DNA from: Marsupella aquatica
Lineage: Eukaryota; Plantae; Marchantiophyta
Direction: 5' to 3'
DNA: 64,000 nucleotides
NCBI GenBank assembly: GCA_973895155.1
Contig: OZ316893.1
Span: 17,887,836-17,951,835, forward strand
Shown here: positions 19,559 to 57,139 of the stretch, piece by piece
How positions within the stretch are numbered: position 1 is the stretch's first letter
Layout of the letters: every line of letters starts with the position of its first letter
The notes under the pieces: model-generated
Databases searched by the model: none
What the model saw: only the letters and a program-made list of their open reading frames with translations
Told to the model about the DNA's origin: nothing
Program-made: the position numbers and the translations under genes

Positions 19559-19631
19559 TGCTCGTAAGTTCACTCCAAATGTACAACTGTTTTCAACAAC
19601 ATATTTTTGGTAAACTTAGTGTTTGTTTTAA

Positions 19632-23166: not shown

Positions 23167-23893
23167 ATGGCTTGTCCAAAACGGCCAGCACGCAGAGGCG
23201 AATCACACGTGAGGCACGAATCCATGAGTAGACATCGTCATTGGTCCAATGTACAAATTCATTAGAAAGTCGCTCATGTCTATGCCATTTGTGATGATGG
23301 AGGTGACCTAGTCATGTGTGATGGCCCCTGCTTGAGACAATTCCATGTCAATTCCTAGTCCACTTATGCACTAGAGAATGCATGCCCTAGGGTTGGGCTC
23401 CAGGAGGACCATCAGGGTGCTTGGACCTGCTTTGATTGTGCCACTAATATCAACAAGTGTGCTCAATGTGGCACAAATGGCACTCTTGGGGGGGGTGAAG
23501 CAGAGTTGCAAAAATATCCCGACAGGTTCTGTGTTTGTTTTTTCTGTTTGATATGCCTGCCCCATGATAACTCTCTTTGCCCACTGCATATTTGTCCTGT
23601 TTGTGGGGAGCCTGATGATGACTACTGGATAGACATGGTCCATTGTCCCAGATGTCCCACAGCCTGGCACGTACCATGAGTGTTTACTAGCCCTTCAGGA
23701 AAAAGGGTATGCATGTGACCGACAGATTTATTCCCACTCTGCACACGGGGTTGATAGGTGGTTTTTGTATTGCCACCTCCATATGATTGACCCTCATCTG
23801 CAGACCCCTACAAGAGACCACTTGACTTGGCTATTGTTGGATGACACCTCCAGCGCCAGCAACAAAACAAGAGAATCAGTACCAACAGGCTGA
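23167..23893 (+). pseudogene. EDM2/NSD-type multi-PHD finger module
   Basis: Manual translation gives AICDDGGDLVMCDGPCLRQFH, WTCFDC, KCAQCG, CPLHICPVCG, HCPRCPTAWH and IDPHLQTPTRDH. Contains stops and frameshifts. Confidence 0.75.
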
Positions 23894-24780
23894 GCTAAAT
23901 GAATCCAAGTTCATTGCACATTTCACATTTTGGACTTCTTAATGAAGTGGGGCACCTCACTGCAGTGTCAACCATAGATCAAAAACACCATTCTACACTG
24001 AGTTGTCTTTCAAGTTTGTGACTGCATAGTCAATTTTGATCTTGCTTTTTCAGTTCAGCCATACATGGTTCTGTCCTTATACCTTCGTACACAATGACAC
24101 CTCAAAAACTAAGTTAACTTTTTTTTTGAAGACTGATTAAGTTAATTGCAATTTCAAAGTTAGGGCCTACACAAGGATGTCTGTGTGTTTTCCACTTTGA
24201 GCAAATCATGTGTATGGTAAGAGACCATAACTGTGAAAGACTAAAAATTCCAAGCAGACAGTGTTTCCTGGAATAAACAAATAGGCATGCATTGGAGTAT
24301 GAAAATACATATATAGCTCAAATTATGTATTTGTTTTTGCTCTTTACAAAGGTCATCTGCCTGTACCTGACCCATACATTTGTACAATTACAGATGTGAC
24401 TGGAAATTGGGCTTTTGAATGAAATCATTCTCAATCCCCACCACTATGACCTAAGAGACAGGTATTTTTATGTGAATTCAGGCTATATCCACAACAAATC
24501 AATATATAGGGCCACGTGTATGCTATGTGTGTACTCAAATGGGTTGTCACTCTACTTTCATCATTCTCTTTACATAAACACATCATGGTTGATATATAAT
24601 ATGACTGAAGAGCATATGGTTTGTCATATAACTTCGTCATGGGATTTACTGCATGTATTGACTTTTGATCCTGTCATGTGGGCCACAATCAGGGAGAGTG
24701 CACTTTGTGTCATCAGAGAGCATCGGGCTGAGGGACAGGCAATGCAGGCATTGGTATTTCTCTGTTGGCTTTTATTATAG

Positions 24781-25590
24781 GAGGCATCACGCCTTCCAAA
24801 CGGAAGCGCAAACCTGTCCTTCTTCCACCTTCCCAGTGTGCTCCCATCTTCCAAGGGGTCAAAGTCTTTTTCAATTGTCCCAGGTATTCAGAGTGCAAGA
24901 TTGGATATCCTTAGGAGAAAACTCATTGAGCGTCATGGTACAGAGACACAATCTCAACTACAGGACACTAAAGTCATCCATATTATTGCAGAAGCATGGG
25001 AACATTGTCTGCAAATGGCATCTTGGTCGGTTTTCTATGACAGTCTTCTTGAGGCATGTCAAAGTACTTTCAGCAGAATGGATGTCTGACTCCTTTAGAA
25101 AAGGGAGTGTCCAAGATCCTGATGATTATAATTGTTTGAGAGCAAGTACAACAGCATCCAAATGATGAAAGACAATCAAGATTGGCACAAGGCATGTAGA
25201 ATTGCAAGGAGAGATGGTAGTAGGGTGCCCTCTATTGACCAGATCACAAAAGTATACAACAACATTATCCCATATGAGACACAACCCTTCCCAAACCGTA
25301 CCATGTTCAGAGGTTTGAGGGCTGCTATACTTGACAAGTCTATCAAACCATATAGGGTCTGTCGTTTCAAGAGGGAGATTAGTAGAAGAGGTGGTATTGT
25401 GATTGAGAAGCTCACTAATGAGACCACCCATCTCATTGCTTATTCATATTCTAAGGCATGCCGAGAGTATGGAAAGTCCACGGTACGATGGCTCATCACA
25501 CATGGGTTGCGTGTGGTCTGCCCTGAATGGGTAAGGCAGTCACTTTCAGGAAATATGCGATTGGATGAGCATAAATATGATTTTGTATGA
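24781..25590 (+). pseudogene. Tandem BRCT domains (DNA polymerase lambda-type)
   Basis: GIQSARLDILRRKLIERHG..VIHIIA..EWMSDS and MFRGLRAAIL..GGIVIEKLTNETTHLIAY..VCPEWVRQSL. AG acceptor at 24780. Confidence 0.7.
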
Positions 25591-26131: not shown

Positions 26132-28873
26132 ATGCATCAGGCAAGTGAGGATGGACAGTTGGGCAAAAGAATCAAAGACATACCATTGAACTATGACTCC
26201 CTTTGCATCACCCATTGAGGATCACACGTCATGACTCCAAGTTGTGGAATAGAGAGGTGCTTAGAGCAAGCAGGGGCAGAAATGCCCGGATGAGATGCCC
26301 CTGCACAGAGTGTCGAGGATACCACTCGATGACCCAGAATCAAGTGCATTCTCATCTTCAAAGGCATGGAAGACATCCAATCTGCAAGGTCTGGAATGTG
26401 CCAGAGGAAGAGGATTCATCGGATGATGAATGGAGAGCAGATTTTGAAAATGTGAATACTGCAAGACGCTCTGCATTCTTTCATAACGTCACTGGTCCTG
26501 CAGGGAACAATGCCAAAGATGAGTATGTTCCATAGGGAGGTCCCAAGACTTCTAATGAGGACGGGGCAGATGTTCCCCGGATGGTTTCAGACATTTTTGA
26601 AGACCTGGATGCACTTTATGAAGATGCATAGGCACAGGGGGACAAAGAACCAGACATGCATGGTGCAGGTCCGTCGGACCAAGAAGAGTTTGACATTGGA
26701 GAACGAGCTGGAGATTATGGTCAATTCTTGGGAATTGGGGCCAACTTGGAGGAAGCTACGTCCCCATTGTATGGTGGTGCAAATTGCTCCAAAATAGGGT
26801 TCATAGTGATATTCCTCAATATATGTGGATGTCACCGTGTGCCCAACATATGTGTTGTGAGTTGTTGATGTTCCTATAGAGGACAATACTACCCGCTGGA
26901 AACATTGCTCCTACGAACATGTATGAGGCAAAGAAGGTGATGAGCAAACTTGGTTTGAATTATGTGTCTATCCATGCATGCCCAGATGGCCATGTACTTT
27001 TCAAAAAAGAATATGCTGATTGCCTATCTTGCCCTATCTGCGGACAGCATAGATATAAGAACGTGGGGAAGTCAACTCAACCTGCTAAGGTCTTGTGGCA
27101 TTTCTGGGGGCATTTCCCTCTCATTCCAAGATTGCAGCCCCTCTATAGGTGTCCATCCATTTCTAAGAAGATGACTTGGACCTTTGATCACAAGAGTACA
27201 AATGGTTTGCAACGTCACGATGGCTTTTTGTCCTGGGAGATATGGTGCCCCTGGACGCTGGAGCATTAACGATGCAATTAGATGTATGGTAGATTTCAAT
27301 TCATTGCCAAATGTGGACATTGTAGGAGTCACTGCTATTTGTGGACGCTTGGGAATGAGATCAATTCAGGACGGATGGTCGGTGGAGACAGGGGGCTGGA
27401 AAGACCTTCCGCTTAGGGGGCAGGTGCTGCGAGGATTCACGGGGGAGCACAGAGGGCTGGCTAGAGCGTTCCTAGGGAGAATTTGGGAGTCAACTGCCTG
27501 CAGGTGGGACAGGGATCCTCCGGCCAGACAGTGGAGCTGGTCTGACAGGGCAGAACCTCTCAAGGACTTTCAGATCACCAACTGCAGGGTCTACCAGTTC
27601 TTGAGACCCAAGATGAGCCGTCATGTGCTGCTTAATAGGTGCTGGTCCTCACACCGGTCGGAAATTGAATGGTGCATTGGATGGAAGAAGCTGTGGATTT
27701 CTGACCTCTCCTGCAGGGCAAAAACCTTTATCTGGCGGATCCTGGTTGGTGGATTGTTTACTGGTCAACGGGCCCTCCGTATCCAGGCTGGTACTGGGAA
27801 TTGCAAGCTTTGCTATGGGGTCTTGGAGACGATGCAACATTTGTTCATTGAATGTTCCCATGCCTCATGTTGATGGAGGATGTGTGACAGGATTTTGACG
27901 GAGCTTCGCTTACCCATTGGAGGTGGTCTGCTGGCTATTCTTGATGCATCGACAAGACCGGAGCCTATTCACACTGCTAGGATCTTTTGTGTATATCAGA
28001 CTCTTTGGATGATTTGGCTGGGAAGAAATGAACATATGTTCTCTGACAAGGTGGGACGTTCATTTGACTTGGGCCTGATGCTTGCTGAGACTGCCAATCA
28101 CATCCATGCGGTTGGGGCTGGTTTACGCTTTGGGCGGCGTCGCTCTCGGTTGAACCGGGCTCAGGAATGGTTGCGGGGAACGAGGCAAATCTGGCTGAGA
28201 CGGGGTGGGGACAGGATTCTCTTGGTGCCCTCTAGCAGCGGCGTTGCTAATTGAGGGGTCTGCTTTTTGGGGGGCTGCTGTGGGAAGGGCATGGATGCTC
28301 TCTTGATCGGTGTTATTTCCCTTCTTTGAGGGGGGGCTCTCCCTGGGGCTTTGATGCTCTCTTTTGTGCTTTTGGGCTCTCTTTGTGGCTCGCTAGTATG
28401 TTGTTGCTGTCCCTGTATTAAGGGCTGTTGTTCCCCCTATCCGTGGGGTCTTTCACGGTATTAAAATTTATAAAAAAAACCATTCCAAGGAACGTCACGT
28501 TGGTGATTCCAACCATTGGAAGTACATAGATGAGGATTGGCCGGACTTTGCAGTAGAGAGCATAAATGTGAGGTTTGGTCTAAGCCTTGACGGTGCTAAT
28601 CCTTTTGGAGACAAGAACAACGTGTATTCCTTGAGCAGTATCAAATTCCAGGGCCACGGGCGATATCTTCCTGCCAACCACCCTTTCAGGCACAGGCAAT
28701 CCCACATAGCCCGCTTCAACAACCAGAGGGAGCTTTGAGAGCCACATGTGTTGGTTAGTAGAGACCAGCTTCTGCAATGGGGACTGAACAAGGTGTCTTA
28801 TGATGAATATGGTGCTTCTAGAGACGTGCCAAACCACCCAATAAAGACTCATGGCATCAAAAGACAGACAATC
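26132..28873 (+). pseudogene. CACTA/En-Spm transposase (TnpD-like), degenerate, split by a LINE
   Basis: CPCTEC..HLQRHG, EATSPLYGG, IHACPDGH..CPIC, HFPLIPRLQ; resumes after the LINE as WKYIDEDWPDFA..NVRFGLSLDGANPF, HGIKR. Confidence 0.9.
27220..28490 (+). mobile_element. 5'-truncated L1-type LINE
   Basis: zf-RVT (KTFIWRI..CKLC..ETMQHLFIEC), poly(A) at 28472-28479, 9-bp TSD AACGTCACG at 27211-27219 and 28491-28499. Confidence 0.9.
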
Positions 28874-32870: not shown

Positions 32871-35135
32871 ACAACTTATCAGTCACCCTTGGGAAGTGTG
32901 ATACACTCTCCCCAACAGCCACCAAGGCATCCACTTCTAACAACTTCCCCTTCATGTACATGTGGAATTTGGGAAATAAGCATGGTCGTCGACTATTGTG
33001 CTTATCCTCCTCATAAAATGTGGTCCATTTCCCAACAATCTCTTGAGAGTTATACAACATGAATGCAATGAGTTTAGTGCGCTCACTAGGGTCAAGAAGC
33101 CGTTCTCCCTTTGCACCTGTCAAACGGTCATCCTCATAGTCTGCTTCTCTTGATGCCTCATCTATCCACCCCATTGGAGCATTTTAATCAAGTGTATCAA
33201 TAATGTTTGTACAATAAAACATGCTCTCTGCTCCAAGATGACGCTCAGCAATGCTACCTTCCACCCTTGCGTGATTTGAAACATAGGACTTCATCACTCC
33301 CATGTACCGCTCCACCCACTACATCCAACGACAATGTACAAGGCCTGCAATACCAACCTCACGCACTTGATGTAGTAGAAAATGAACCTGACCATCAAAA
33401 AATGAAGGAGGAAGGGCCCTTTCAAGTTTGCACACAACCTCCACTCCAAACACCTCCATTGATGCAACCTCATCCTCGTTCACCTCCTTTTGACACACCC
33501 ATCTCAACAACTTACCCAACAACCAAAGGGCATCACAAAGATCCTCACTACCCAATCCAATAATAGCAACTGGAATAACATGTTGCAATAAGCAATGATA
33601 ATCATGGGTCTCCAAGAAAGCTGGCCATTTTGGAGAGTCAAGTCCACCAAATGCCTTGCGGAGATTGGCACCATACCCTATAGGAAATCGCATAGACCCT
33701 ATGCATTTGCAAAACTCAGTCCGCTCACCTTGTGTCAAAACTTGTCGCGCCCATAATCCGGGCCTTAAATCCAAGTTAGTTCCCTGGGGTGACCACGACC
33801 ACTAGTAGGGGTGTAGTGGTCCCGATTAGCCCTAAGTTGGGCTAAGTCGATATACTTGCCGATATAATACTTACGTAACTCGTACGGGTATAGGTATATT
33901 TGTTTTCCACCGCTGGAATATTCCCACAGTTAGTGACTTGGACTAACTCCCGGCTTGGGGCTTTCAAGCCATCCACGCGACTTAGAACCTTGCGTTATGC
34001 AACCCGAGGCAATCCCTACCATTAGTCCGCACCCGGTACGTCCCTTCAAATGGCGTCTTTGCCCAGACAAAGCATGCACACAACACCAGTTACTTGCGAT
34101 AGAATCAGAGGGAAAAGACTACATTTTACTCAGCAAAGAATCGGTTTACATAGTTGACTTGACTTCTAAGGGGTCAGTAGGCCTAATGGCAGTCGATGCC
34201 CAGTCTCTACGAGGCCATGTGTAGTTTGTCAGGGAAAACCAAAAAGCACACTTTATGGTCTTCCAACTCGGTATTCGTTCCCGTAAAGAACAAGATGGGG
34301 TTGGTTTGATAGATTTAAACAACAATAATAGACTTAAGATGTTTTCCACACATAGTAATCAAGTTTGATTACTTTACTAAGGTATTTTGAAGATCGCTCC
34401 ACAGCAGTGAGAAGTTTTTAATGATATCTCAGCATTATGTAACCATAAATTAATGAAAAGGGAATGATTAACAAAATATTAAAAAAAAATTATCTTAAAG
34501 TATGCTAAGGGAGTCTGGAATTGACCAAGGTTGCTCCTTAGACATAAGTCAAAATGAAAAAACTTAAGTATTCAAATCCATATTGTTTTTCAGATCTAGA
34601 ATGTTTACTAGATTACCCTTTTAAAGTGCCGTCAACACGTCTTGTCTTTTCTTTCTAAGTGGTACTCAGACAAGATCTAAAAGAGTGACTACTTCAACAT
34701 TTAGATGGTACTAAGCAACATGAAAGAAAATCCATCAATTTCAATAAGACATAAACTCAATGAGTTAACTTTAAGAACTTAGGAATTTGTAATGAGTCAC
34801 CAAGGAGGAATCTTTCATCACAAGATCCAAAGATTTCTTACAAATGCAATTTTACTTCTTGTGTTTATGATAAGTGTAGAAACACAAGGAGGTAAGTCTC
34901 TCCTGTTATTAAGCCTAATTTAGAACTCATAGGTTCAGAATCAATAGACTTAACAAGAGGGAGAGGCAAAAATGCACAACTTAACCATAAACTACACTAG
35001 TGGTGGAGGGGTCTTATAGTAAAAATCTACAGAGTAAGAGGGTCATAAGGTCGAAGAGACATGCCTCTTCATACTCCTCAAAAAGTTAAAATGATGATTC
35101 AGTAAGTGAAAAGCCGGAAAACTGGCTAAGTCTGA

Positions 35136-35330
35136 ACTCGTAAACTAGTAAAAACGTAAAGTCGTAAAGTCACTAACTCGTAACTCGTAATCGTAAGTAA
35201 CTCGTAAGTAATAAACTAGTAACTAGTAAACTCGTAAACCCGTATACCCGTATACTCGTATTGCGGTATACTTAAGAAACTTAACGAATTCAACTATTTT
35301 TAACTTTCTACTCGTAGCTCATAAAACTCT
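35136..35330. repeat. ACTCGTAA/ACTAGTAA short-repeat array
   Basis: More than 10 degenerate copies. Confidence 0.85.
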
Positions 35331-38079: not shown

Positions 38080-38245
38080 CCAACTCGTAAGGCAAAACTC
38101 GTAAAGCCCTAACTAGTAAACTCGTAACTAGTAAACAGTCGTGAACTCGTAAACTCGTAAACCAGGATACTATTAACTAGTAACTAGTAAACTCGTAAAC
38201 TTGTAAAAAGGAGTTTACTTGTAACTTAGACTTGGGAACCCGTAA
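38080..38245. repeat. Second ACTCGTAA/ACTAGTAA array
   Basis: Same motif as 35136-35330, within the same LTR. Confidence 0.85.
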
Positions 38246-41175: not shown

Positions 41176-43980
41176 ACTAACCTTTGTAGTCTAGTTCGTT
41201 AAGTCCGCGTCCCCGCCTGGCAGTTTTGCTTGCTGGTGGAGGCCTTACTTGCCCTGACTAAATCCTGCCACAATCCGCTCTTACCCTTCGATAATTTCCT
41301 CGTAAAAGTTAGCTCGATTCGAGCAAAAGGTGAGAGTGAATGGCAGCGTCCGCAAATTCCGAAAGGTATGAATGAGCAAATGGGCCGCGGCACCATTGAC
41401 TCAGATCTTATGGAGGTGCTAGGGTGAGCCCAAACGTGAGAAGGCGAGGCCATTTTGGTCGTTGATAATGGCCCAAAGTTGGGTGTCTCGGTCCAAGCGT
41501 GATCTCCTAATGGAATTTTACTCCGCCGCCACCACCGTACCTCGGCCGATCGTAATAATTTTCTTCCCTTAATTTGTAATCATTCAACTAACCTACTCCT
41601 AATCTACTCATAATGGCAAAGATGACTATTTGTACTACTCTACACTACGGCTACTATCCTAATGACCGTATAAGTCCTAATCTAGGACCTGCGCTCGGTT
41701 AAGTGACACGTTACCCGTGTCACAAAACTCAAGGATGATGAATAGTAAGGGGGCATTATTGGGATCCATAGATGGCCAAAAACCATGAGGGCCATGCATC
41801 CCTATCTCTTCACAACTCTCTCTCTAGTTGTTGTCTTTCTCTCCATATAGGTGGCAAATCAAGGACCTCCCAACATTTCCCTCAATGTGCATAGGGTCAA
41901 ATAAATGGTTAAGTGGCATCTCAGCACAATAAGGCAGTTGTGACAATGCAGACAAACAAGTCATGCCACATCGGGCAAACTGCAATGGGTCATCTAGATT
42001 AGATACTCTCCCCCATACCTCTTTCCAATATGCAAGATCTTTTGGTATAGGTTGTGGTCGTTTGTCTGGTTGGCCATCCTCAGTGTCATATAAAAAGGGG
42101 TCACTCCTCCAATCATGGTCTGTAGGGAGGTACTTGGTGTGACACTGTCTTCCTCAAGGTCTTTGACTTTGGCCGCGCTATTCCTTCCAAAAATAGTCCA
42201 CAAGTTGGGCAAACTCGATATCCTGGTGTGGTCAGGCCAAAAATATATCCAAACCCTGCATATAAATATATATCCCATGCATAAGTAAATAAGTCTATTA
42301 AAAGATATATGTGCTCCTAGCTAACTCAATACATAACAAAATATGCTAGGTGTGGTTGCCCTATGGGATGGGGTAATTTAACAAAGATTCATACCTGGAA
42401 GATCATGTATGGTCCACATAAGAATGGCCTTCAACTTAAATTCTTGACGTAAGCCCCCCGTTTGTACTCGACCATCATAGCAATCCACACCCCTCCAAAG
42501 CTTTTGTAGCTCCTCAATCAATGGTTGCAAGTACACATCAATTTTTTTCACTTGCTTAGGACCAGGGATAATCATGGAAAGGAGCAAATGAGCCTTCTTC
42601 ATGGACATCCATGGAGGGATGTTGTAATTATTAAGGACCACTAGCCATAGTGAATATGGTTGGGCCTTACCTGCTAGTGCAAATGGGCTGATGCCATCCG
42701 CTGCCAATCCTAGGTGAACATGACGTGGGTCAGTTCGAAACTCACCCCATCTCTCCTCCACAAACTTGTTTGCAAGGGAGTCAACCATCATGCGCATGGT
42801 GGGTGGTTGTGAACTCATATCTGGGCGATTTTGGGAATGCCAAACCAACTCAGCACATCTATATTGGTGGCGCAAACGAGGTATAAGAGGAAAGTACCTC
42901 ATGACCTTCTGAGGTACTTTTCCCGTCAACATGTCCTCACGATCCCTTGGCTTCTCACATGTAGGACATGACATTGCATCTTTACAAATGCCTCTAAATA
43001 GAACGCAATCATTCACGCAAGCATGTATGACTTCGTACTGCAGACCTATGGACTTCAACACCTTCTTTGCCTCTTTCCAAGAGTCTGGCAAGTTGTTTCC
43101 TTCAAACCTCAATTTAAGGAATACTGAAGTATTAGATTAATTCCAGTTTTATCTGAATATTATTAGTTAATGAATGATCAACCTCTTTAACATTTGTTGG
43201 GATACTCAAAAACCGGGAATGTTTTGTTGGCACAAGATCTTAATAACAATGCTTCACTAAATGACATCAAGTACCTCTTGATCCATGCACAAATCCTTAA
43301 TTAAACTGTCATTCATTGTCTCAATTTAAGATTTAATTACTATAGGGTCTTTTATATACAACAAAAACACGCACCAGGGCGCGTGACCTACAATCATAGT
43401 ACCACAGTCATGGCAATAGTACCCCCCCTTAGTTTCTATTGCTTTGACTCAATCAGACATGGAATCATACTTCATATAAAATGAGAAATCATTGAAAGTT
43501 GTGGTCACTTGTCTGAAGGTGTATAATTATTATTTATTAATAGGATTATTGTATATTACAATGTCTACTCGACATTCATTTGAATGTCAATAATATCATG
43601 CCTTAATATCACCAAACTAAGGCCCCACTAACTAATATTATATCTTAAGTAAACTAACCAACTAACTAACTTTATTAGACAATAAGACTTGTCTAAACTT
43701 GAGTTCTTTGGCTACTACTATTCTGAGCAACTGCCTTTTAAACTGTGTGTTGAACTTGTAGCTTCATTACTGTCTAGGATTTCTCACTTGCTATGCATGT
43801 CAAGAGATAGTCTCTTGCCTTGGCAGCAACATTCTTTGGAATTCCAACCAGCCCTATCATTGGTCCTTTGTGTGCTTTGAAACACCACAAGGCAGAGGAA
43901 ACATCTATTGTCTCAGCTTCCTTGTATATTGGAGCTGGATCACGTTCTCATTTCTTATCCCAAGAATTTTCCCACCACTC

Positions 43981-46900
43981 TCATGGCTGCCAGTCTGATT
44001 GACCACATGGCTTCTTTGCCATAAATGGTCTAAACCACTCAACGCCACATACATGAGTAAGAAGGGTTTGTTCATTCACTGGTCCTTCTACCACATCTGT
44101 AACAACTAACCCCATATGGACGGGATAAACATCTAGGTCTGAGTTGTCCGGCCGTACCAACACATAACAGCCCTTCATGACATCAACCCTAGGGTTAAAA
44201 CTCTTAGGAGGTTTATCTTTTGCAGGTCCCACATAATCCACTATTTCTTCCAACTCACATGCCACATTTCGATATTCTGGTGGAAGGTGCTCTCTCCATA
44301 TTGATAAAGGCCAAAACCCGTATTCCAAGTTGTGTGCACCTTTGGGTTCATATTGCACCTGCTCACCCTGTAGAGTATCTACAATGTCATTCCAATAATT
44401 GATGAGAGTTGTCCAACGTCGCTTTGGTTCTTCCACTTTTGTTTGCTTTAGAATAAACTCAAAGAATGACACATGCTTCTTCAACCCTGTCAGCACTTTA
44501 GGAAGCATTTCAGCTCCATCATTGGTAGCCATTTGGTCACCCCAATTGGGATGTGAGGACTTTTGTCATCTTTCCATGATCACATTTCAATACCTTCCTT
44601 GGGTAACCATCCCTGATCAGTAGACTTCATTTTGTATTGGAAGCATGACATACTATCATGACGAACATAGAACCTAAACAACCTGGGTTTTGTATGCCCC
44701 ACCAATGCCTCAGGGCCCCTCAACATGAATGGAGCTAAGTAGCTTTTGAAATCCGGGACCTCCTATAGAAAATGGGCGACTGGATTGGGTGTCCTTGCTC
44801 TCATGAACAAGGACATTAACTCAGGCAATGAGTATGTGGGGTTATGCATCATAGACTCTGAAAAATGCCTGAACATACCATCCACGTCCTCATGAGTATG
44901 CCCAACCACCATAAAACCAAGATGAACCTCTTCAAACATCTCCCTTGCCGTCAACAATGACAAATAAGTCATCATATATCTGTTCTTGTTGTCTGAGGCA
45001 CAATTATCCAGTTGTAACTTCAATACTCGTGGAAGGGGCATGAACTTTGGTGCCTCAGGTGCTACATCACAATGTAACCCAAGACAATCTCATAATGCTT
45101 TTCATGCATATGAAAGAAGATAGTGAAACCCTAAACCCTAAACCCCAATTGTACAAGATAAGAAGCCAAGAAGCTTTTAAATAAAACCCTAGTCAGACCC
45201 TAAACCCCAATGTAGGGTTTAGGGTTTACACCCTATTAATGAAACCTTGGCTAGGAGCAACAACTACACAAAGTAGAGTGTCAGTGTGTGTGAGCTTATA
45301 TTATTAATAATAAAAGGATTGTGAGTAAAGTACCTAGGCTTGAGATGTAGACAATGTCAACCTCAAATGCTCTAAGGGCACTTGCCTCCAAGATATCTTT
45401 TCGACCAAAAAGGAGGTCTTTAAAAAGACTTGTTGAGTCTGGCCCCTCCACAAGTGATTTGATCATTGGATTTGAGTTTTCCAACATCCTTAGTATTGAA
45501 TCAATTGACCCAATAGTGATGTTGACATCACCTGGCCACACTCCAACATGATATTGGGCTATGGCCTTGGGACCATGACCATGAGTAAGGATACCAGTGA
45601 CAATAATTGGGAACTTTTGGGCACCATCCACATGCTTAGGATTGAAGGACATTCTTGGGAGAGTTGTCTTTGAATGATCCATCTTATCATGAATAAGGCA
45701 TAACACTTCCTTTGGTCGATGGATGGACTCATATCTCCAGGTATGATAGTAAGCACATTCTTTGTTGTGTGTGGTCTTGGTGATGTTTCTCCTTGTCACG
45801 CCTCAGGCCCTCTAACTTTTCCTTAGCTCCTGTAAGGTTTGCTTTCCATTGAAGCAACTCATTACAAGTTGTACACTTTGAAAAGTTGTTGCCCTTTTTG
45901 TGGCGCGAGAACTCCCTGAAATACATCTGATGTAGATGACTCAAGGTGGGTTGGGAAATTGGAGGAAGACCAGCCTCCTTGTCGACAACATTAACCCGAT
46001 TCTAATATTCTCCCAAGTAAGATTTGTTGGCAATTCCCTCAAAACCATCCTTGTATTATCTGCCATGGTTCTCAACTTGGCTGGATGATGATCAGTTGCC
46101 TCCTCAATAATCTCTTTCATTGACATGAACGCTTGAGATACTTTCTCGGACATAAACTTGGCTGGATGATGATCAGCTGCCTCCTCAATAATCTCTTTCA
46201 TTGACATGAACGCTTGAGATACTTTCTCGGACATACGCCTTTTTCCAGCATTACCATGGGTACCTATGTTCATTCCAGCCATCACAGTCTTCTTCAAGAC
46301 ATAAAATTGAGTCTTTCCTCTTGAATGAATGATTCTCCATGTCTCCAAGCACAATACTTTGCCCCCCACTGCTAGAATCCTTTTGCCAGTACCCAAGTGT
46401 ATTGTATTTTTAATAGCCTTGATTTCCTCCTTGCGCTCCGCAAAAGATTTTGACCACCACTTTTGCCTAATTGCCATAGCCAAGTTGTGGTCCAAATATT
46501 GGCAACAATGTTCACTACAACAGTCCTTCATGTTTATCAACAACACATCTTGATGTGCCAAAGATGTGTCTCTTCTAGATGTTTGGGAAGATGGACTCTT
46601 TCTTTTCCTACTTTTATGGACGTAGGACCGCTTGCCACTTGTTGGAGATGTGTTTCCTCCCATAGTTTGCCTGATGTTGTGGAAAGATAACAAGTTGCCA
46701 TCCTTGGCAATGAGTTGGTCCATCAACCAACCTTTTAAGCAATCTCTATGCTTCAGATGATCAACGGTAGCTCCCTCGACAAAATCGTTGATCATAATTC
46801 CCACATGTGTATTCCCAAGGGTGACATCCCCAAGCTTCACTATAGGATCTAGAACATGTATAGTTGTCACTGCAAAAATCAACTTGTTCTCATCCACCAC

Positions 46901-47002
46901 CTTTACAGGCATGCCCATCCACAAGGCCTTTGGTAAAACTATTTCCACACGAGACCGACTCTCATTATGGTGTAGGAAAACCGTCAGCTCTAGTCTAGAC
47001 AA
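43981..47002 (-). pseudogene. Sola-like DDD DNA transposase
   Basis: CCSEHC, FSKCTTC, LIHDKMD, LQLDNCASDNKN, MVVGHTHEDVDGMF. Probable intron near 45090-45340; an 81-bp tandem duplication at 46074-46235. Confidence 0.7.
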
Positions 47003-47005
47003 CTA

Positions 47006-47960
47006 TGCGGAACATGAGAGCACTCAATCTCACACTATGCCAACAAGACACCACAATCATGGAGAAACTCCTGAAGGATCCTCATGAGATTGAACATGTG
47101 AAGAATGAGGGAGAGAATGCTATCCCTCCAATCTATACCCCCCAAGGGGGACTAAGATATGTGGGCCTAAATAAGTGGATCTTATCCTAACTAACCAAGG
47201 GTCAATTAACCCTAGTAAGGCCAAACTAACTATAGTCAGGAACTCGAGTCAATTCCTAACAATCTCCACCTTGACTCAAGTTCACACAATGAGTCAGGGT
47301 GATATACAATATGTAACTAAGTAACATATCTATATAGTCTCTGGTTTGGCCTTAACATTAATTATATCCACACAATGACTAAAGCTACTAGTAGGTAAAA
47401 CTTTGGTAAGCATGTCTGCAGCATTCTCCTCTGAAGCCACCTTCTCCAAAAACATCTGCTTCATCTCAATCACCTCACAGATGAAGTGATAACAAATATC
47501 AATGTGCTTTGTCCTTGCATGGAACATTGGGTTCTTAACCAGATGCAAAGCACTTTGACTATCACACAACAACACCGGTCTTTGAGGTGAAAGACCCAAA
47601 TCACTCACCAATCTCTGTAGCCAGATCAGCTTCTTGGTTGCCTCGCAAGCAGCCATGTACTCAGCCTCAGTAGTAGACAACGCAACACACGATTGAGTTG
47701 TTGACTTCCAGCTGATACAACCTCCACCCAACATAAACACATAGCCTGTAGTAGACTTTCTATTATCCAGTTACCAGCATAATTTGAATCTACATAACCT
47801 CCCAACTCTAATGTAGAGTCTACTTTATCGTCAAATAGAATCCCACAATCTAAGGTTCCTTTCAGATATCACAAAACCCACTTCACTGCTTCGCAATGAG
47901 GTTTACCAGGGTTTGCCATAAATCTGCTCAAAATGGTAACGGCGTGAGCAATGTCAAGTC
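47006..47960 (-). mobile_element. Ty1/Copia 3' end: RT/RNase H remnant, PPT and a ~256-bp 3' LTR (47006-47261)
   Basis: [35 protein letters not shown]. Minus-strand PPT AAGGTGGAGA is followed by TGTTAGG. Confidence 0.9.
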
Positions 47961-50900
47961 CACCATCCACATAGCAATAGTGATTCAGCGGTTATATCAT
48001 GGCTAGCAGTGTGGTCAACACCGGAGAGGAAGCTGGCGAATGATTAGGGAATACCTTTGGCAGACTCCACCAGGATTTTAGAAGAGAAGGGAGGATTTGC
48101 ATTGGCAGACAGCCTTGATGCTCGGTGTGACCTTTGAATGGGGGAACCGGATACTTTGGGCTCCCCGATGTCTCCTACCTAGAGGTGTGGGAATGCTGGC
48201 CCTTCCAGCTGAGTGAAGGGAGAGGAGGTTTTGAGAGACGAGATGAAGTTTTTTCATTTTGCCTCTTGGAATGTCTGCGGACTGTGTGATCCGGACCAAA
48301 AGAATGTTGTTTTGAAATGGGCCTCCAATTTGCGACCCCACATTGATGCGCTTGCCTTACAAGAAGTGAAGGCTGAGGCTTTCAGGCTGGATATTGCTCT
48401 ACGAGCAATATTGCCTTCCTTTAAGTATTACTACTCGGCTCCTGACAAGGGAAGAGGTGAAACTGCCATTTTATTGCATCCATCCTTTGGGGTGCGCTCA
48501 TCTGGCACCATTGATAGAGGCCGAGCAGTATGGATTCGACTGGAGCATGCGAAAGGTGATTTTGGTTTAATCAGTGTCTACGCACCTAATTCATCAGGAG
48601 AACAAAGCTTACTGTGGAATGATCTACTTAATATTTTACCACAGGACAGATGGATTATCTGTGGTGATCGATTTCAATATGATTGAAGACCCACAAGATT
48701 CTACATGTGTAACTTCTATTATCCGAGGTAGGGAGTTGGACCTTTGGCGACTATTAAAGCTTAGATTTGATTTGCAGGATGTCCAAGGAATTTTGGGACT
48801 GGTAAAGGGTTCCAACTTCACTTGGAGGAGGGTTCGCTATGGGCGCATTATTCAGTCTCGACTTGACCGTTTTTACCTTAGCAAAAAAGGGCAGTGGATG
48901 GCGGAAATCATTGAACTTAAACATGATGGCTCTTATGCTTTATCGGATCATGATCTAGCTACCTTTACCTTTTGGATGACCCCTCTCTACGATACGGAGC
49001 TGATTACTTGCAGAGCCACTTACTTTAAAGCAAACCCAACGATTCTAAGAAAAACTGAGAATATCGAAACTCTAGCAGAGGCATGGAAGGATGGGCAGGA
49101 AAGTAGGATGGATGCACATTTGAAGTTTGCCAATGCATTTCAGAGGCTGAGACGAAGCTTCATGGAATTACAATACTCTCCGGTCCCGTGGGATGAAGAA
49201 ATGGTGAGAGTAAGGAATAAACTTTGCTTGCTGAAAATTGCAATCATGGATGATTACTCCGAAGATACTATACAAGATTTTGCTTGTACTGATCAGTGCG
49301 TACGTGAAATGGAATTAGAAGAGGCCCATCATCATCAACATCTGTCTAGAATAACGTGGCTGGGACAGGGAGAGGAACCTTCTAAGTTTTACTTTTCAAT
49401 GGTAAAGGCTAAAAGAGTAAGAGAAAATATGGAATATCTGATCACTGAGGAAGGGAGGGAGATACGAGAGGAGAAATTGATACTGATGGAGGCTCGGGGG
49501 GTTAACTAAGTGTATATTTTGGGGTACCACGTGCGATCCTAGCTTAATATAAATAGACCTATTTTATAAAGAAAATATTCCAAGAATATTCTCTATTGTC
49601 AATATTAATAACCTATTTTACTTTATAAAAGGTATATATTAAAGAATATTCTATAAACATGAGTTTATAATACCTTCTTTTGCCTCCTACGCTTTTTAAA
49701 AATTTAGTTAAAATATGCCAAAAATACCTATTTTGGATCGCACGTGGTTCCTAAGATTTTTGATAGTCAACCCCCCGAGGATGGAGGTACAACGACATTG
49801 CCAGGCATTGTACACCCCACCGGTAGTGAATAACGAGGAGCTGAGAAAAATGCATGTGGCCAGAGACAGATTATGTCAACACACTCACTTCGCTCTGCCT
49901 ACTGCGGAGATCCGAAGGCTGGAGAGGCTGCCTACTATGGAAGAGTTACATGAGACACTGAGATTACTACCAGGAGATAAGGCACCAGGAATAGATGGCA
50001 TGACCGCTGAGGTCCTACGTGCTTGCTGGGCCTTCATGAAAGAAAATTTCTTTGAAATGGTGTGCGATTTTTGGAGGACCGGTAACATCGCTTTTGGAAT
50101 CAAAGAGGAAGTGATCCAGTTCATTCCCAAGAAAATTGACAAAAGAAGATTGGGAGATTGGAGAGGGTTAACTATGCTCACAACTACATACAAGGTGATT
50201 GCTAAGTTACTTGCTCTGCAACTCAAGATACTACTACCTAGATTGATTAGTCCATAGTAGACGGGATTCATCCTGGGGCGACACATTTTGGAAAATATTT
50301 CCCTTACCTGGCTAGCAAGCGACTGGATTAATCTTACGCAAACTCCCACTCTATTTCTACAACTCGATTTTGAAAAGGCCTTTGATAGGGTAGATCATTC
50401 CTATATCTGGGAGACGATGAACTTACTAGGAATAGGGTCTCCTTTCATCTTTCTGGTTCGATCTTTACTTAGCAATGGACTATCCAAACCGTTAGTGAAT
50501 GGATTGTGGACGGAGGAAATTGGTACGAGCCGGGGTGTGAGACAGGGATGCCCTCTCTCCCCGCTGCTGTTTGCTATCTCCACGCAACCATTTATGGATT
50601 TCTGTAATGCAGAGATCGCTGCTGGTAGATTGCAGGGTCTTAGGATTAATTCTTCTTTACACATATGCTTTAGATTGTTTGCGGATGATGTAGGATTTTT
50701 CATTCCAACCACTGTTGAAGCTTTTGACTAGGTGAAGGAGGCGATTAGTTGTTACAAAACGGCCTCAGGAGCCAGACTGAATCTGAAAAAATCTGTGATC
50801 ATCCCATTTGCTTTGGAGGTGATTTCGGAGTGGCTTAGAAACACCAGATGCAAAATTAGCAAAAAAGGTATGGTGTAGTGCTACCTCGGAGCACCCTTCG

Positions 50901-52783
50901 GAGTGGACCTGTTGGAAGCACAGCTGCATAAATTTTGTCTAGATAAAATTGGGGCGAGGCTATCATCGTGGTCCACCAGATTTTTATTGTTCACATGACG
51001 TTTACTACTGATAAAACACGTCTTACAGGCTATTCCAATTTATCACATGATGTTTATACAATCATTAGGGGAGCTAGCTAAGAAGATGACAATTCTGAAT
51101 AGAACTTTTCTATGGGGAAGTAACCATCTCGGAGGACGTCGAATACCATTGGTGGCGTGGGAGAAGATGACACGACCTAAACTAGAGGGGGGACTTGGAT
51201 TGAAGGAATTTAGAAGTCATTTTGATGCCTTGTTGTGCAAATGGTTTACTAGGGCACTGGATGACCCGAATTTTGAATGGGCCAAAATGTATGCGGCGAA
51301 TCTCAGACTGACAAAGTGGCAAAATTACAAGACTATGAGGAGGAATCACTATTCCATGACGGATCTGCTACTACTGAGTACCCCAAGATCTTTTGGTAAA
51401 TTGGCATATACTAGAAAGCTTTGGGGTGCATGGGCAAAGGTACGAGAATACTTTATTTTTTGCCCTGGCACAGGCTCTATTCCAGGGAATTGGGGCATTG
51501 AGGACACGATACGTTGCTTGCACGGTTTTACCATCTGCCCGAGAAGGATATCACAGAGATTGTCCAAATCTTTGGCCGATTGGGAATTCGGACCACACGG
51601 GACCTCTGGTCTACAGTGGACAATAGATGGAAAGACATGTCAGGAAAATTACAAAGATTGAGAGGATTCACCATCACTGGCCAAGCACACAACGCATTAC
51701 TTCTGCAAAATCTTACTGAAGCCAGGATTGAAAGCAGCGCACCACTGGCGGATGCCTGCCTTTGGAGATGGACAGATTTAGCTGCGAGGATGAGGAATTT
51801 TGGATTATCCAATATGAGGGTATATGAGATGCTACGACCCAAGGGCACAGACTCGGATCGATTAAACCGAATATGGACAGAAGCACTTACAGAGATGGAG
51901 TGGAGAGGCATTTGGAAAGTGTTGTGGAGATCAGACCTTTCTATGAGAGGGAAAGTTTTCATTTGGCGTGTTCTAGCACAAGGATTATTCTCGGGATCAA
52001 GGGCATTGAAGATTGAGAAATCTAATGGTCATTGTCTGCTCTGTGACAACATGTTAGAAACCATCTCGCATCTATTCTGTCACTACCGTCATGCACGATA
52101 TTGTTGGATTGAAGCTAAAACTTGGATGAACGGGGATCTCATTGGTACTTATCTGAGCATCATTGGGCTGCTGAGATCATTTCAAGGTCGCACAGTGTTA
52201 CACTCACTCAGGGCATTTATAATTTGCCAGATTGTATGGAGCATCTGGCTTGCTAGGAACAGTCAAACCTTTGATTTGGCACAGCGACGAGTGTTTGATC
52301 AACTACATGTCATTTCAGACACAATGGATCATCTGGCTGCCATTATTGTAGCTGCCATCCCCACCTCTGACAGGAAAAGGAGTCGACTACACGCTACATC
52401 TGAAATGCTGAGAGAGGAATGCACAAGGCTGGTTAGGTCTGGAGTTAGAAGGCTGATAACTCGATAGGGGTTTTTTTTAATTAGGAAGTCTTAAGGTTCT
52501 ACGAGGATTTGCTTTCAGCTATGGACTTGCTATGAAAACCAAGTAGAAGCCCATAGAATGCTAGGTGGAAAGGACATCTGACTTATCCTTCTCCTGGATT
52601 TTAACTGTAGATTGAAATCTAAGGATTCTTACCAAGGTGCTGTTAGTTTGGCTTAGGGTCTTGTGGAAAATCTTTACTACCCTTGGGGATTTTTTTGCCT
52701 TTGCGGCCTGCTGGTTTCCCTCTCTGTGGGGTTCAAGCGGAATAAACAAAAATTTAAAATTAAAATAAAATAAAATAATAAAA
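47960..52783 (+). mobile_element. L1-type LINE with degenerate ORF2 (APE endonuclease, RT, zf-RVT)
   Basis: SWNVCGL, LQEVK, SRLDRFY, SDH; KAPGIDG, LDFEKAFDRV, GVRQGCPLSPLLF, LFADD; CLLC..HLFC. A-rich tail at 52741-52783. Confidence 0.95.
49493..49779. mobile_element. 287-bp MITE with 8-bp TSD
   Basis: TIR CTCGGGGGGTT(A/G)ACTA, 15/16 match. TSD GATGGAGG at 49485-49492 and 49780-49787. Removing it rejoins the LINE frame (LILMEVQRH). Confidence 0.92.
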
Positions 52784-55493
52784 TGTGGTGTTACATCGAC
52801 TACGTTGGTTGTATCTTGTTGACCGATTTTGCTGAGAAGGCCTACCAGCCTGGCAATTTTAGCGGAACGCGAGAGGAATTTGCTGAGATATATAGAAAGC
52901 TTTACCGATCTTATGTGCAAGAGAAATCCTTAAAAGTAGGCGGTGACATTTGGAATGAAGGGAATACCAAATTGGCGTTTCGGGAAGCATGGATAAAGCA
53001 AACAAAGCGGTGCGTGACAAGATTTCTCATACATCAGGAGAACATGAATGCAACAATGTTGAAACAACTACCATTGGCGATTAGATCTTGGATGGAGGCT
53101 ACAGGTAGCCTTAGCATGTATCCATGTGATGGTTGCATGCCTCATGGCAGAGTATTCTTGGATTGGGAACGGAGGAACTGCCCATGGTACATGGAGTATG
53201 ACAATTGGAACACTTTTCTCGAGGTTGCCGAGAAGGATAGTGCAGACCTGCTCAAAGAAGCACAGGAACCTTGTAATTACTACGATATAACAAAGTTGCG
53301 ACAACTATCAGATTCAGTAACGGAGGCAACAGAGGTGGAGACCCTTATCCCAACTGACCCTGCCTATGACGGGAAGAAGGCCAGAAAAGAAGGTGAACGG
53401 AAGGTTGAGAAGGAACCATCGAGCAACATCAGTCAGTCTGACTCTCTAACCAGTCCAAGAAAAACATCAGGTATTACTCGATTCCTTTTGCACTGCATAG
53501 TGGTTTCATTTGGAACTACATCTTGGCTGGGTTTGCTAACATAGTACTAAACCAATTTTGGGGTCGTTGAGCTATACTGCATCTCATCTCGGCGAGGCTC
53601 GCTGAGAACAAACAAGTTTCAATCGCATCTCGTCCGAACCCTTGGATCTCATCTTGGCGAGGCTTGCTGAGAAGAACATCCAAATGTCGTCCGGACCCTT
53701 GGAGATAAAGTATAACGTCCAGTGTCTATGGATCTCATCTCGGTAAGGCTCATTGAGAAGAACAACCAAATGTCGTCTGGACCTTTAGAGATGAAGTATA
53801 ATGTCAAGTGTCTGGATGTCATGTCGGCTAGGCTCGCTGACAAGCTTAGGATCAATAACCCCATTGCTTTGCAATCTATCCAGGTATGAAGGAGATACCG
53901 GAGGAACCAGGTTCTATAAAAAGCAAGGCTGTAGAAGTGGCTTCAAAGCCAATTATAGAGAAGGCTCCACAGCCAACAATAGAGTCAGCTACAAAACCAA
54001 CTGCAGAACCAACGATAGAGCCGGCTATACTACAACAAGGCAACCAGCAAGTGGAGCAACAAAGCGTGCAGCCTTCGACAGAGCCAATGGTAGACCAGCC
54101 TCTGGACCAACAAAGCGAGTAGCAACAAGAGCATGACGCATCCTAGGGAGAGAACGCAACCCAAGGAGGGGATCATTCAGATGACGTATGGGTAGATAAA
54201 AAAGGAGAAGATGAACGGGTAGAGGACGAAGGAGAAGATGAACAAGAGGGGCGTGAGTCTGATACTCCGGCGCCAAAATGGATGCCATTATCCTCAAGGC
54301 CGAAGACAAAGGCTGCAAAAAAGACCAAAACAACGAGGCCCAAACCTCACCGCGCAAAAGCATGTGACACTGAGCTTGAAGACATTCTGCCCAGCCCCAT
54401 AGAGCAACCCGGAGTCGGATGGCATAGAGGTGGTTGGAGTTTGGCGTTCAAGCGCCGATAACTTTTCTTCCCCGCTCAGGCATTGTTATTTTAAATGGTC
54501 TCCGTATCTTTTTAAAACTTACTTTGACGCTGCCAATGACAGTAAAGAACCGGCTGTGGTACTCCGTTTTAGAGACTGGTGCAGAAAGCTTGGGCGGGCT
54601 GGTTTGGCTGCAGAAGGTTGGGTAAAGAACGGGAAGCCTGCAAGGTCTGGTGCAAATCTGATTCAGATTCAAATGGGATTAGACACCCGCATGCACGCAG
54701 ATGGGAACATCCCATTGTGGAATTTGTTTCGGCCAGACGACCTCAGTCGGGTTGAGGATTTTGTGCAAGTTTTCCTCGATGATGAGGGATTGTTTGGCAT
54801 AGTGCACAGTGCTTCGGTTGCCCACTCCGCAGTACTTTGTGACAATCTCAATTACAAAGAGACCAATTGGGTGCTGAAAGACACCTTTTTCATCTAGAAT
54901 GCCACACCCACCTTCGACTTCACGACTCGAAAGCGGGTAAGTCTAATAGATTTAACTCCATTCTTGTCTGATGTTCTTTTGGTGACTTGTACTCAGAAAG
55001 ACTCATCACTGACTTTGTTATGTACGTCCAGAGTGAATATCTCAAGCTGGACCTTTGGGGATTTAAACCGTCTGCCGAGGTATGCCCAAAGGATGACGTG
55101 AAGCCAATCAATGTCGAGCTTGATATGAAGTTGAGGAACGGGCTAACTAACTATACAACGGGTCAGAATGAGACCATTGATGATTTTGGTGGCACCTTGT
55201 CTCCAGCTACACTCCAATGTATAATAGAATATACAACTAAGCCAGGGGGAACTGTTGTCACGTTCAATGCACACTTCGGGGCTATCTTTAAGGCTGGTGA
55301 GAACTGTGGGTGGATGGTCTTTGGGACCAAATCCTATCCGTACTTCAAATCTTATGCGTTAGACACGATGACAGAGTTCATTGGAGTGCCTCTAACGGAG
55401 CAAGAGGAGGCAATGGATCGTCAAACATCCAATCCAGAAAAGCGCAAGAAGAAAAAGCCTTCATGTGAGTTTACTACCGTTTCCCTTCAATGA
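52784..55493 (+). pseudogene. MTase-like gene copy B (ParB end missing at the LINE junction)
   Basis: WERRNCPWY matches WEVLHCPWY of copy A; IPLWN, FLDDEGLFGIVH, IIEYTTKPGGTVVTFNAHFGAIFKAGENCGWMVFG. Predicted intron 53471-53883. Confidence 0.7.
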
Positions 55494-55867
55494 TTTTAAT
55501 ATTGTCCCATAGTATTTCAGCGGACTCTCCGAGATGGCTCTCCATCTAGGAAAATCCATCTCGGTTGACGTCTTCGAGATGCATGTCGGCGGGCCTAGCC
55601 GAGAGGATTGCATCTGGCCCGGGCACTTTGAGATTTGCTGGAAAGTCCCTCTCAGCTGGCCTCTCCAAGATGCATGTCGACAGGCCTCGCCGAGAGGAAT
55701 CGCATCTGGCCCGGGCATATTCAGATTTCCAGGCAAGTCCATCTCAGCGGGCCTCACCTAGATGAATCCCGGGTGGCCTGGCCACGTCAACTTCTACTGG
55801 CAAGTCCACGTAGGGCCTTAGATGCGTCTGGAGGGACAAAAATACATCTTGGCTAGCCTCTTTGAGA
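53587..55867. repeat. Palindrome TCTCGGCGAG-S-CTCGCCGAGA in two clusters
   Basis: Copies at 53587, 53652, 53738 and 53822 (intron) and at 55584, 55650, 55675, 55742 and 55847, plus degenerate copies. Confidence 0.85.
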
Positions 55868-56057
55868 TCTATCTCAAAAGGCGACTCAATGGAATATCTG
55901 GGGTGTCCATATTGGCTCACTTGCCCCACAAATTTGTTCTTGTGATCTGTCTATTTCGGTGCAATACATGATTTGATTTAAGTATAACTTAGTAGCAGTT
56001 CCCGACAAGACCACCAAGTCGGCAACCAAGGAATGGGACACACAGGACAGACGACTT

Positions 56058-56312
56058 GTGAAGCTTGCTTGGGAGGAAGCTTTGGCATTATTCTCTTCGG
56101 AGAAGTCAAGCCTACCGTGCTACGCTGATACGTATCATGAAGAAAGAGTTGCTCATTGTGTGAAAGAGAGAACAAGGAAGACTCTCAAATTTGTCAATGA
56201 TAGGGCAGAAGAGGCTGAATCGGATGAGAGTAGCTCGGTAGGAAGTGATAGTGATAGTTTCCAAACTCACCATGCAAGCATAAGTTTGTCAAGCTCCAAT
56301 TTCGAAGAGTAA
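56058..56312 (+). CDS. Small protein or exon homologous to 19632-19944
   Basis: LPCYA..KFVND plus an acidic tail. Confidence 0.45.
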   Translation: MKLAWEEALALFSSEKSSLPCYADTYHEERVAHCVKERTRKTLKFVNDRAEEAESDESSSVGSDSDSFQTHHASISLSSSNFEE

Positions 56313-56411
56313 TTTTTGGGTGAATTTACCTTCATTGCAGCTCAAAAGCAAATTGAGCCACAACAACCAGTCGATGAGGCAGTGACTGCCTAGCAAGGAG
56401 TCAATCAGGGG

Positions 56412-57139
56412 GTGCTTGTGCACCAACGACCAAATCAGGGGGTGCCTGCACAACGACATCAACCCGCCATACTTGCGACCATAGTCAAAGAAGCATTGGA
56501 CCCCAACAGGGACCAAGATGAAGTCCTAGTCAGCCTCGGCGACTTAAAATTGAAGAGAAAAGATTTCAAATGCTTGAGGGCAAAAAAATGGCTCACTTGG
56601 GACATCATCAATGCTTACATTCCTCTATTGGAGCGTAGAGCAAAGGTCATTGCAAAACCTAAATGCATGCTTTTGCCCACACATTTTTACAATGTCTTGA
56701 CGCATCCTACGTATAGCTTCAACGCAGCGTTGGCATTTGTGAAGGGCATTGACATCTTTTCATTGGACCTCATTCTAATCCCATCCATAGGCCAAAACAT
56801 TGGGTACTAGTTGTGGTCGATTTTACTTTGCAGCAACTACATTTGCTCGATCCCATTGGAGGCAAAGCATTGGAATGCGACGATTTGGTGAATGTCGGTC
56901 GGTTTCTCCATGACCTGTCCCGCTTGCGCAGTTGTCCCCACTCATCGCCATTACAATGGCAACGCATTGTCCGCGACGATATTCCAGCCCAACCCGATAG
57001 TTACAATTGTGGAGTATATGTCATAATGTACATGGAGCGTCTTTCTAGAGGTTTTGTATTGGCGGTTGACCCTAAACATTTACTGCTTATACGACAAAAG
57101 ATTATTGTAGACCTAATCTGCCAAACGATCAGTTTGTAG
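56412..57139 (+). pseudogene. Ulp1/C48 SUMO-protease-like gene
   Basis: WLTWDIINAY, (frameshift) IHRPKHWVLVVVD, LDPIG, QPDSYNCGVY. The His-Asp-Cys triad and oxyanion Gln are present. Confidence 0.88.

Follow-up and report, generated by a model that had tools for sequence, protein, structure and literature searches.

Distinct intronic palindromes in two copies of a probable ParB-type transposon accessory gene from the liverwort Marsupella aquatica, as candidate binding sites

The stretch analyzed here, called the window throughout, is 64,000 nucleotides of the liverwort Marsupella aquatica (GenBank assembly GCA_973895155.1, contig OZ316893.1, positions 17,887,836 to 17,951,835 of the forward strand), a nest of plant-type transposons made up of Gypsy, Copia, LINE (long interspersed nuclear element) and CACTA pieces. 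It holds two copies, A and B, of a putative transposon accessory gene, homologous over three regions at 26–31% identity. Each copy carries its own short palindrome, motif A or motif B, which is restricted to the introns and non-coding stretches of the gene, and neither motif occurs in the other copy. Below, we discuss these palindromes as candidate binding sites of the protein encoded by the same gene.

Palindrome arrays in copy B

Copy B is a decayed gene, a pseudogene in a multi-copy family. Its features, in window positions, are as follows.

47946–48017, plus strand: exon 2, left piece (24 codons); residues 155–178 of the homolog P0001 map here by tblastn
48018–52772, plus strand: LINE inside exon 2, limits approximate, foreign to the element; Exo_endo_phos, RVT_1 and zf-RVT matches, A-rich tail at about 52745–52772
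52773–53470, plus strand: exon 2, remainder, coding for the helical 'CPWY' domain's C-terminal half (alignment; 37 homologs at E≤0.001)
53471–53883, plus strand: intron 2 (predicted, phase 1; GT-AG, in-frame join), with four motif B sites and a possible fifth (53521)
53884–54936, plus strand: exon 3, encoding an acidic/basic linker and the methyltransferase-like region's N-terminal half (34% identity to Calypogeia P0004; copy A homology)
54937–55031, plus strand: intron 3 (predicted, 95 bp), free of motif B
55032–55464, plus strand: exon 4, C-terminal half (S-adenosylmethionine-binding side) of a beta-class methyltransferase fold, motif I degenerate (HHalign; copy A homology)
55465–55998, plus strand: non-coding stretch, probably intron 4 (predicted; GTGAGT donor, phase 1)
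55999–57139, plus strand: Ulp1 SUMO-protease coding region, broken (Peptidase_C48, E 6e-14; zf-CCHC)
53587, 53652, 53738, 53822, 55584, 55650, 55675, 55742, 55847: motif B copies at ≤5 mismatches

Residues 179–418 of P0001 map from 52783 on, to the right of the LINE, and tblastn with this protein finds nothing in the window of the gene portion 5′ of 47946, the ParB-like exon included. The exon 2 remnant directly adjoins the 3′ part of a minus-strand Copia element (47097–47945), which suggests that a deletion took both 5′ parts. Exon 3 is damaged by three in-frame stops and a frame change near 54410–54500. Predicted intron 2 is backed by donor-like read-through tails in homologs of both protein clades described below, and the acceptor end of intron 4 is weakly predicted at about 55992–55998, where three of five nearby AGs fit the donor phase. 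The Ulp1 region may be joined to the copy B gene via this predicted intron, or else be a separate gene. It is followed by a Gypsy-type gag reading frame on the minus strand, and retroelements interrupt copy B on either side.

A search of the whole window at up to five mismatches recovers nine copies of the 21-bp palindrome (1–5 mismatches each), all within 53587–55867 and none elsewhere in the 64 kb. The original prediction of at least nine copies is thereby confirmed, against a chance level of 0.145 on average and 2 at most in 200 dinucleotide shuffles, a test that is partly circular because the consensus was derived from the same nine copies. The main weight lies not with the shuffle figure but with the convergence of ten decayed copies on a perfect palindrome. 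Individually, all copies are imperfect, with 5–9 of ten arm pairs matched, and the consensus alone is perfect. The tenth copy lies at 55559 (seven mismatches), and a possible eleventh at 53521. In its fuller form, motif B spans 25 bp, with 9-bp arms (CATSTCGGC / GCCGASATG) around a variable 7-bp centre. C-to-T or G-to-A changes account for 22 of 41 departures from the consensus, and the 100 arm pairs comprise 63 at consensus, 33 with one-sided changes, two compensated doubles and two uncompensated doubles.

The copies are embedded in 86-bp and 92-bp tandem units and are therefore not independent of one another; two site pairs in the 3′ array stand head-to-tail, 25 bp apart. A symmetric TGTC...GACA change at 53822 is indeed present. 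At 55584 and 55675 that letter is found on one side only (4 of 20 half-sites in all), which indicates a tolerated position rather than covariation and leaves the change as weak evidence for coevolution.

The placement of the first array was predicted correctly, as the intron after the CPWY domain (53471–53883) matches the position of a copy A intron (17646–17743), both introns being predicted. The second cluster, described as lying just past the methyltransferase exon, does sit 3′ of exon 4. Its six sites (55559, 55584, 55650, 55675, 55742 and 55847) probably fall within the predicted intron that runs from 55465 to about 55992–55998, not beyond the gene.

Contigs from four of six runs cover copy B, and three of these runs contain hundreds of pieces, from >99% to <90% alike, which places copy B in a multi-copy family. 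At 12 in-site positions of the 3′ array, at least two of the four runs carry another majority letter (40 of 42 rows compared); ten of these letters move toward the consensus, one moves away and one is neutral. One run carries an extra 25-bp site, and joints show other array lengths, so that the arrays gain and lose units between copies.

Gene family, clades and encoded protein

The 37 homologs of the helical domain are representatives, and those that could be named are proteins of the leafy liverwort Calypogeia fissa only, with no algal protein among them. Once near-duplicates and pieces shorter than 100 residues were removed, 31 rows entered the protein tree, where 18 group as the A clade and 13 as the B clade with support of 100/100; Calypogeia proteins fall in both. 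A word search for longer proteins with the B exon kept 0 of 936 candidates. In a metagenome scan, two of 50 stretches passed: L001 is a genuine exon of the B clade, which stops short of the intron, and L002 was rejected as a false bacterial match. Viral scans gave no stretch with the helical domain (0 of 4) and, with the ParB-like domain, one of 41 that proved to be an out-of-frame false match; prokaryote genomes gave none (0 of 44).

The features of copy A are listed below.

15628–16185, plus strand: exon 1, probable ParB/Srx-type domain with an invariant DGNHR and a terminal Asn
16186–19943, plus strand: remainder of the gene, with helical domain, methyltransferase-like region and last exon; predicted introns 1, 2 and 3 carry motif A
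20244–21654, no strand assigned: four more motif A sites, downstream of copy A
26197–27266, plus strand: start of a CACTA-type transposase (Transpos_assoc, E 3.6e-7), downstream of copy A and in the same orientation

Motif A reads TAGCGCC-W-GGCGCTA. Ten of its 11 matches in the window (≤3 mismatches) fall within 16275–21654 and the eleventh lies at 12297; copy B holds none at this threshold, which bears out the prediction that the copy A motif is missing there. Among the downstream sites lies a perfect 34-bp inverted repeat (20460–20493 and 21367–21400, 873 bp apart), near which a short word, CCGTCAGT, is repeated; this may be a small inserted element or a second motif.

Whether motif follows clade was examined in homologous proteins that read through into intron 2. 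Exon ends were set by hand for 23 of 50 proteins and four near-duplicates were dropped, leaving 19 tails (377 residues), which were back-translated and asked whether they could encode either motif, a test of compatibility rather than of DNA. Among tails of at least 20 residues, two of four in the B clade fit motif B. P0003, 47% identical to copy B, fits it twice with no arm mismatches and a different 7-bp centre, and P0006 (38% identical) fits with one mismatch. One of five such tails in the A clade, that of P0019 (37% identity to copy A), fits motif A without mismatch. No tail fits the motif of the opposite clade at ≤1 mismatch. Windows at ≤1 mismatch number three for the B arms against 0.00 in 300 shuffles, and one for motif A against 0.033. 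Because the motifs are kept across proteins only 37–47% identical, each appears to be old and clade-wide, and such retention of a non-coding motif implies selection. The original prediction that each subfamily has its own site is not supported in this form, since only two motifs are found, each kept across that range of protein identity.

The exon 1 domain probably has a ParB-type fold, judged from the sequence of copy A's family only. It has eight homologs, and DGNHRL is invariant in nine of nine members. Its profile aligns with 13 phage ParB-N domains over ~28 columns (HHalign 59%, E 9e-5), whereas 40 column-shuffled control profiles reach at most 2.2%. Weaker matches include a ParB-like PHROG (three of nine members, best E 0.054), the NCBIfam DGQHR family (three of nine, best E 0.0011), and ESM Atlas clusters annotated as ParB_N (11% of a cluster's members) and DUF3723. 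The GERRxRA arginine patch of the ParB CTPase clamp is absent, with DGNHRL in its place in all nine members; phage ParB-N domains also deviate (GGNxR, GHQR, DGFHR), so that the missing patch does not exclude a ParB fold. Compared with bacterial ParB, the domain has an insertion of ~45 residues. A tblastn search of phage DNA with the ParB-like domain gave nothing below E 4, and sequence searches of the PDB gave no match.

The helical middle domain is modeled as almost wholly helical with a pLDDT (predicted local distance difference test) of 86. Fold searches returned at best a VIA match (Z 6.0 over 45 residues) and no Foldseek match; the lack of a clear match in PDB or BFVD does not by itself make this a new fold. 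Dynein-tail matches in the ESM Atlas share fewer than 170 features and were set aside as helical look-alikes. For P0047 (model m30d21381062e), a helical domain of ~420 residues has a high-confidence model and no clear PDB or BFVD match.

In the methyltransferase-like region, the C-terminal half aligns with phage beta-class enzymes (HHalign 89%), with further matches to PF01555 (E 1e-4, below cut-off) and to PHROGs, while the N-terminal half does not align with phage methyltransferase profiles (<1%). Catalytic motif IV, (D/N/S)PP(Y/F/W), is absent from three of three members (all plus-strand frames of copies A and B, and P0004), and motif I is altered to DWTCCSGSS in A and TFNAHFGAI in B. This survey covers three members, two of them pseudogenes of the window.

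Readings of the arrays and related systems

Long arms around a freer centre, tolerated one-sided changes, and conservation within otherwise free introns point to a duplex site of a dimeric protein, and arms kept around a different 7-bp centre, as in P0003, are expected of a dimer site. The gene's own product is the leading candidate for this protein, and more likely than not it binds these sites; that it does so for self-regulation or anti-silencing falls a little short of an even chance. The explanation we favor, at roughly even odds, is that the palindromes are duplex binding sites for a dimeric accessory protein of the same gene, serving most likely for self-specific protection from silencing. 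The accessory protein, probably of ParB type and borne on a plant DNA transposon, would bind as a dimer, with the helical middle domain reading the two 9-bp arms. The ParB-like domain would dimerise and the protein would spread from the clustered sites along the element, and the degenerate methyltransferase fold, perhaps together with the Ulp1 protease in B, may target nearby chromatin instead of methylating DNA. The outcome would be a self-specific protection like that of VANC and TnpA, and two clades with two motifs could keep element lineages from cross-activating one another. Beyond the palindromes as sites, we infer each of these steps. A more elaborate scheme, in which a ParB-type self-loading clamp at clade-specific intron palindromes would slide along the element and bring with it a pseudo-methyltransferase and a SUMO protease to remove or prevent silencing, with two orthogonal pairs long coexisting in liverworts, is unlikely. 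A phage ParB is reported to activate a DNA-modifying enzyme without needing its NTP (nucleoside triphosphate) residues (PMC13229309), and clamp sliding can therefore not be assumed.

Several observations weigh against the favored explanation. The ParB call leans on ~28 aligned columns, Pfam ParB_N matches none of the nine exon 1 members, and the exon 1 structure model (pLDDT 47) is too poor for a fold search. Copy B's own ParB exon is absent from the window, where the domain is seen in copy A only; fold searches with the helical domain identified neither a helix-turn-helix nor another DNA-binding fold; and the element ends and transposase of copy B were not found in the window. Sites are also unevenly placed, as the copy A intron matching B intron 3 holds four motif A sites and B intron 3 none. 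The move toward consensus in other copies is equally expected from undoing C-to-T decay, and contigs of tandem units may be placed on the wrong unit. Two of four B-clade and four of five A-clade tails of at least 20 residues show no motif, the tails ending at the first stop codon; the read-through peptides had been noticed visually ahead of testing, and the choice to match arms only was made with P0003 already known. Three proteins match the motif of their own clade and none is crossed, yet shuffled clade labels equal the observed value in 97 and 102 of 500 cases. The motif follows the clade, yet with two motifs for two clades there is a single contrast, which cannot separate co-evolution from linkage, since joint inheritance in one element would give this match as well. 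The idea of lock-and-key coevolution gains thin support from clade motifs in the same intron of independent homologs and from two clades at 100/100, while linkage suffices to explain the one contrast.

The most serious rival, though unlikely, takes the sites to be bound by the element's transposase, a TnpA-like product or a host factor, with the clade match arising through shared inheritance in one element. Spm TnpA and the AtMu1 transposase are reported to recognize motif clusters particular to each family, grouped in parallel with the phylogeny of the elements (bioRxiv 10.64898/2026.08.24.746577), a CACTA transposase sits downstream of copy A, and a single contrast fails to part linkage from co-evolution. 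TnpA effects, however, are described as limited to element termini (bioRxiv 10.64898/2026.08.24.746577), whereas the sites here lie within and just after the accessory gene, and motif A is absent from the PHD/BRCT and transposase region beyond 21654. It is also possible, but distinctly unlikely, that the protein binds the sites as a parS-like handle for transposition, bridging, condensing or holding excised DNA, rather than for anti-silencing. ParB is described as nucleating on specific sites and then spreading, bridging or condensing DNA (PMC7333895), and the missing catalytic motifs make a DNA-modifying role of the methyltransferase region doubtful. Against such a handle stand the internal, intronic placement of the sites, like that reported for VANC targets (PMC5735166), and the chromatin-related neighbors (Ulp1, PHD, BRCT, methyltransferase fold).

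We consider it improbable that the palindromes act as pre-mRNA hairpins or cruciforms, in splicing or as small-RNA substrates, instead of as duplex sites. Folding is better in both arrays than in shuffled sequence (z −2.9 and −1.9), as expected of any palindrome array, and single-sided changes favor G-U on the sense strand (16 vs 7 A-C), an excess that includes one change common to four tandem intron copies. Two doubles in the arm pairs are compensated, but 33 of the 37 altered pairs are single-sided. By established loop geometry, a one-base centre is useless to a hairpin, and Rfam gave no match at E≤1. Scarcely more plausible, if at all, is an origin of the arrays by neutral tandem duplication or as remains of small elements that had inserted there. 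Seven of ten motif B copies do lie in or overlap 86-bp or 92-bp tandem units, but the motif is common to two repeat units unrelated to each other, and it is seen again at the matching intron in proteins 38–47% identical.

The suggestion that the arrays represent an undescribed system has to be given up, as ParB-domain accessory genes with inverted-repeat arrays and ParB-methyltransferase fusions have already been proposed for algal transposons. In Ectocarpus, the Sola element Sola1-1_Ec32 is described as encoding a 1104-residue accessory protein with a ParB-like domain and an N4C/N6A methyltransferase, proposed to bind and modify its own element, and similar proteins are cited for green and red algae (PMC12477816). 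Compared by description, both are transposon accessory genes of similar size that pair a ParB-like domain with a prokaryote-type methyltransferase; theirs is from a brown alga, and the accessible text names no palindromes or clade-specific motifs, whereas here the methyltransferase motifs look lost. Red-algal Plavaka elements (EnSpm/CACTA) are reported to carry a ParB-domain gene beside inverted-repeat arrays and a separate PF01555 methylase gene (Petroll et al., bioRxiv 10.1101/2025.02.11.637652). PAG3/PAG2 share with the present gene an N-terminal ParB-like domain and tandem inverted-repeat arrays by the gene, self-binding there being only proposed (bioRxiv 10.1101/2025.02.11.637652). In PAG3, as described, ParB is joined to a 2-oxoglutarate oxygenase; the methylase has a gene of its own, which includes a SET domain. 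Unlike these, the Marsupella gene is predicted to combine ParB-like, helical and methylase-like parts, and it has intronic sites and a land-plant host.

A further comparison is with VANC, which is reported to recognize 8–9-bp non-palindromic words on the Mutator-like VANDAL elements of Arabidopsis, as shown by chromatin immunoprecipitation and electrophoretic mobility shift assays (PMC5735166). Both cases have short motifs massed via tandem repeats in introns or intergenic parts and protein lineages with their own motifs, and the arrays described here likewise gain and lose units between copies (PMC5735166). No VANC homology is seen here, and the present motifs appear to be kept over much larger protein distances. 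Bacterial parS sites are palindromic. ParB-parS shares with the liverwort gene an N-terminal ParB-type domain and clustered specific sites (PMC7333895); the latter differs in having DGNHR instead of GERRxRA, an insertion of ~45 residues, no recognized helix-turn-helix and no ParA. Marchantia MpDN4MT1, an N4-cytosine methyltransferase, is likewise a prokaryote-type beta-class enzyme in a liverwort, but is described as a host gene with intact TSPPY, absent here, and ParB goes unmentioned in the accessible text (bioRxiv 10.1101/2021.02.12.428880). Chlorophytes are reported to have methylases fused to ParB and helix-turn-helix domains, land plants having few such enzymes (PMC4738411), and fungal transposons bearing TET/JBP are described without ParB (PMC12730594).

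Neither a land-plant case nor clade-specific palindromes were found in the literature searched, which covered few subscription papers and, for the two algal papers, no supplements, where the repeat sequences may be shown. What is new here is a land-plant version with two defined candidate protein-site pairs, while the kind itself is already proposed for red and brown algae. In the window, the motifs of both candidate pairs are spelled out, each pair serves as a cross-control of the other, and the plant group has a transformable model (Marchantia). Self-binding by ParB-domain transposon proteins is so far a proposal from algae (PMC12477816; bioRxiv 10.1101/2025.02.11.637652). If binding proves true, plant transposons would have, besides VANC and TnpA, a third independent way of recognizing themselves by sequence; a short site would be shown to act over a whole element through clamp spreading, and orthogonal 15–25-bp targeting modules could result.

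The surrounding transposon nest

Between copy A and the neighboring transposase lies a broken gene with weak PHD-variant and BRCT matches (23359–25590), a chromatin-type cargo. The copy A gene, the PHD/BRCT gene and the CACTA transposase may form one element; no convincing CACTA terminus pair was found in the window. Among the open reading frames (ORFs) scanned, none has a Mutator transposase or VANC-type Pfam match, and the nearby transposases are CACTA-type. On the minus strand at 42000–47000, a DUF7869 gene precedes a tnp2 gene of CACTA type, the DUF4218 part of which (33322–33801) is found beyond an insertion; these pieces could be the element that once held copy B, in divergent orientation. 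Upstream of the DUF7869 matches, a 353-codon minus-strand ORF contains an 81-bp in-frame tandem duplication, 99% identical (46074–46235). Arrays of 8-bp units (AACTCGTA / AACTAGTA) are found at 35117–35260 and 38093–38207, ~2.9 kb apart.

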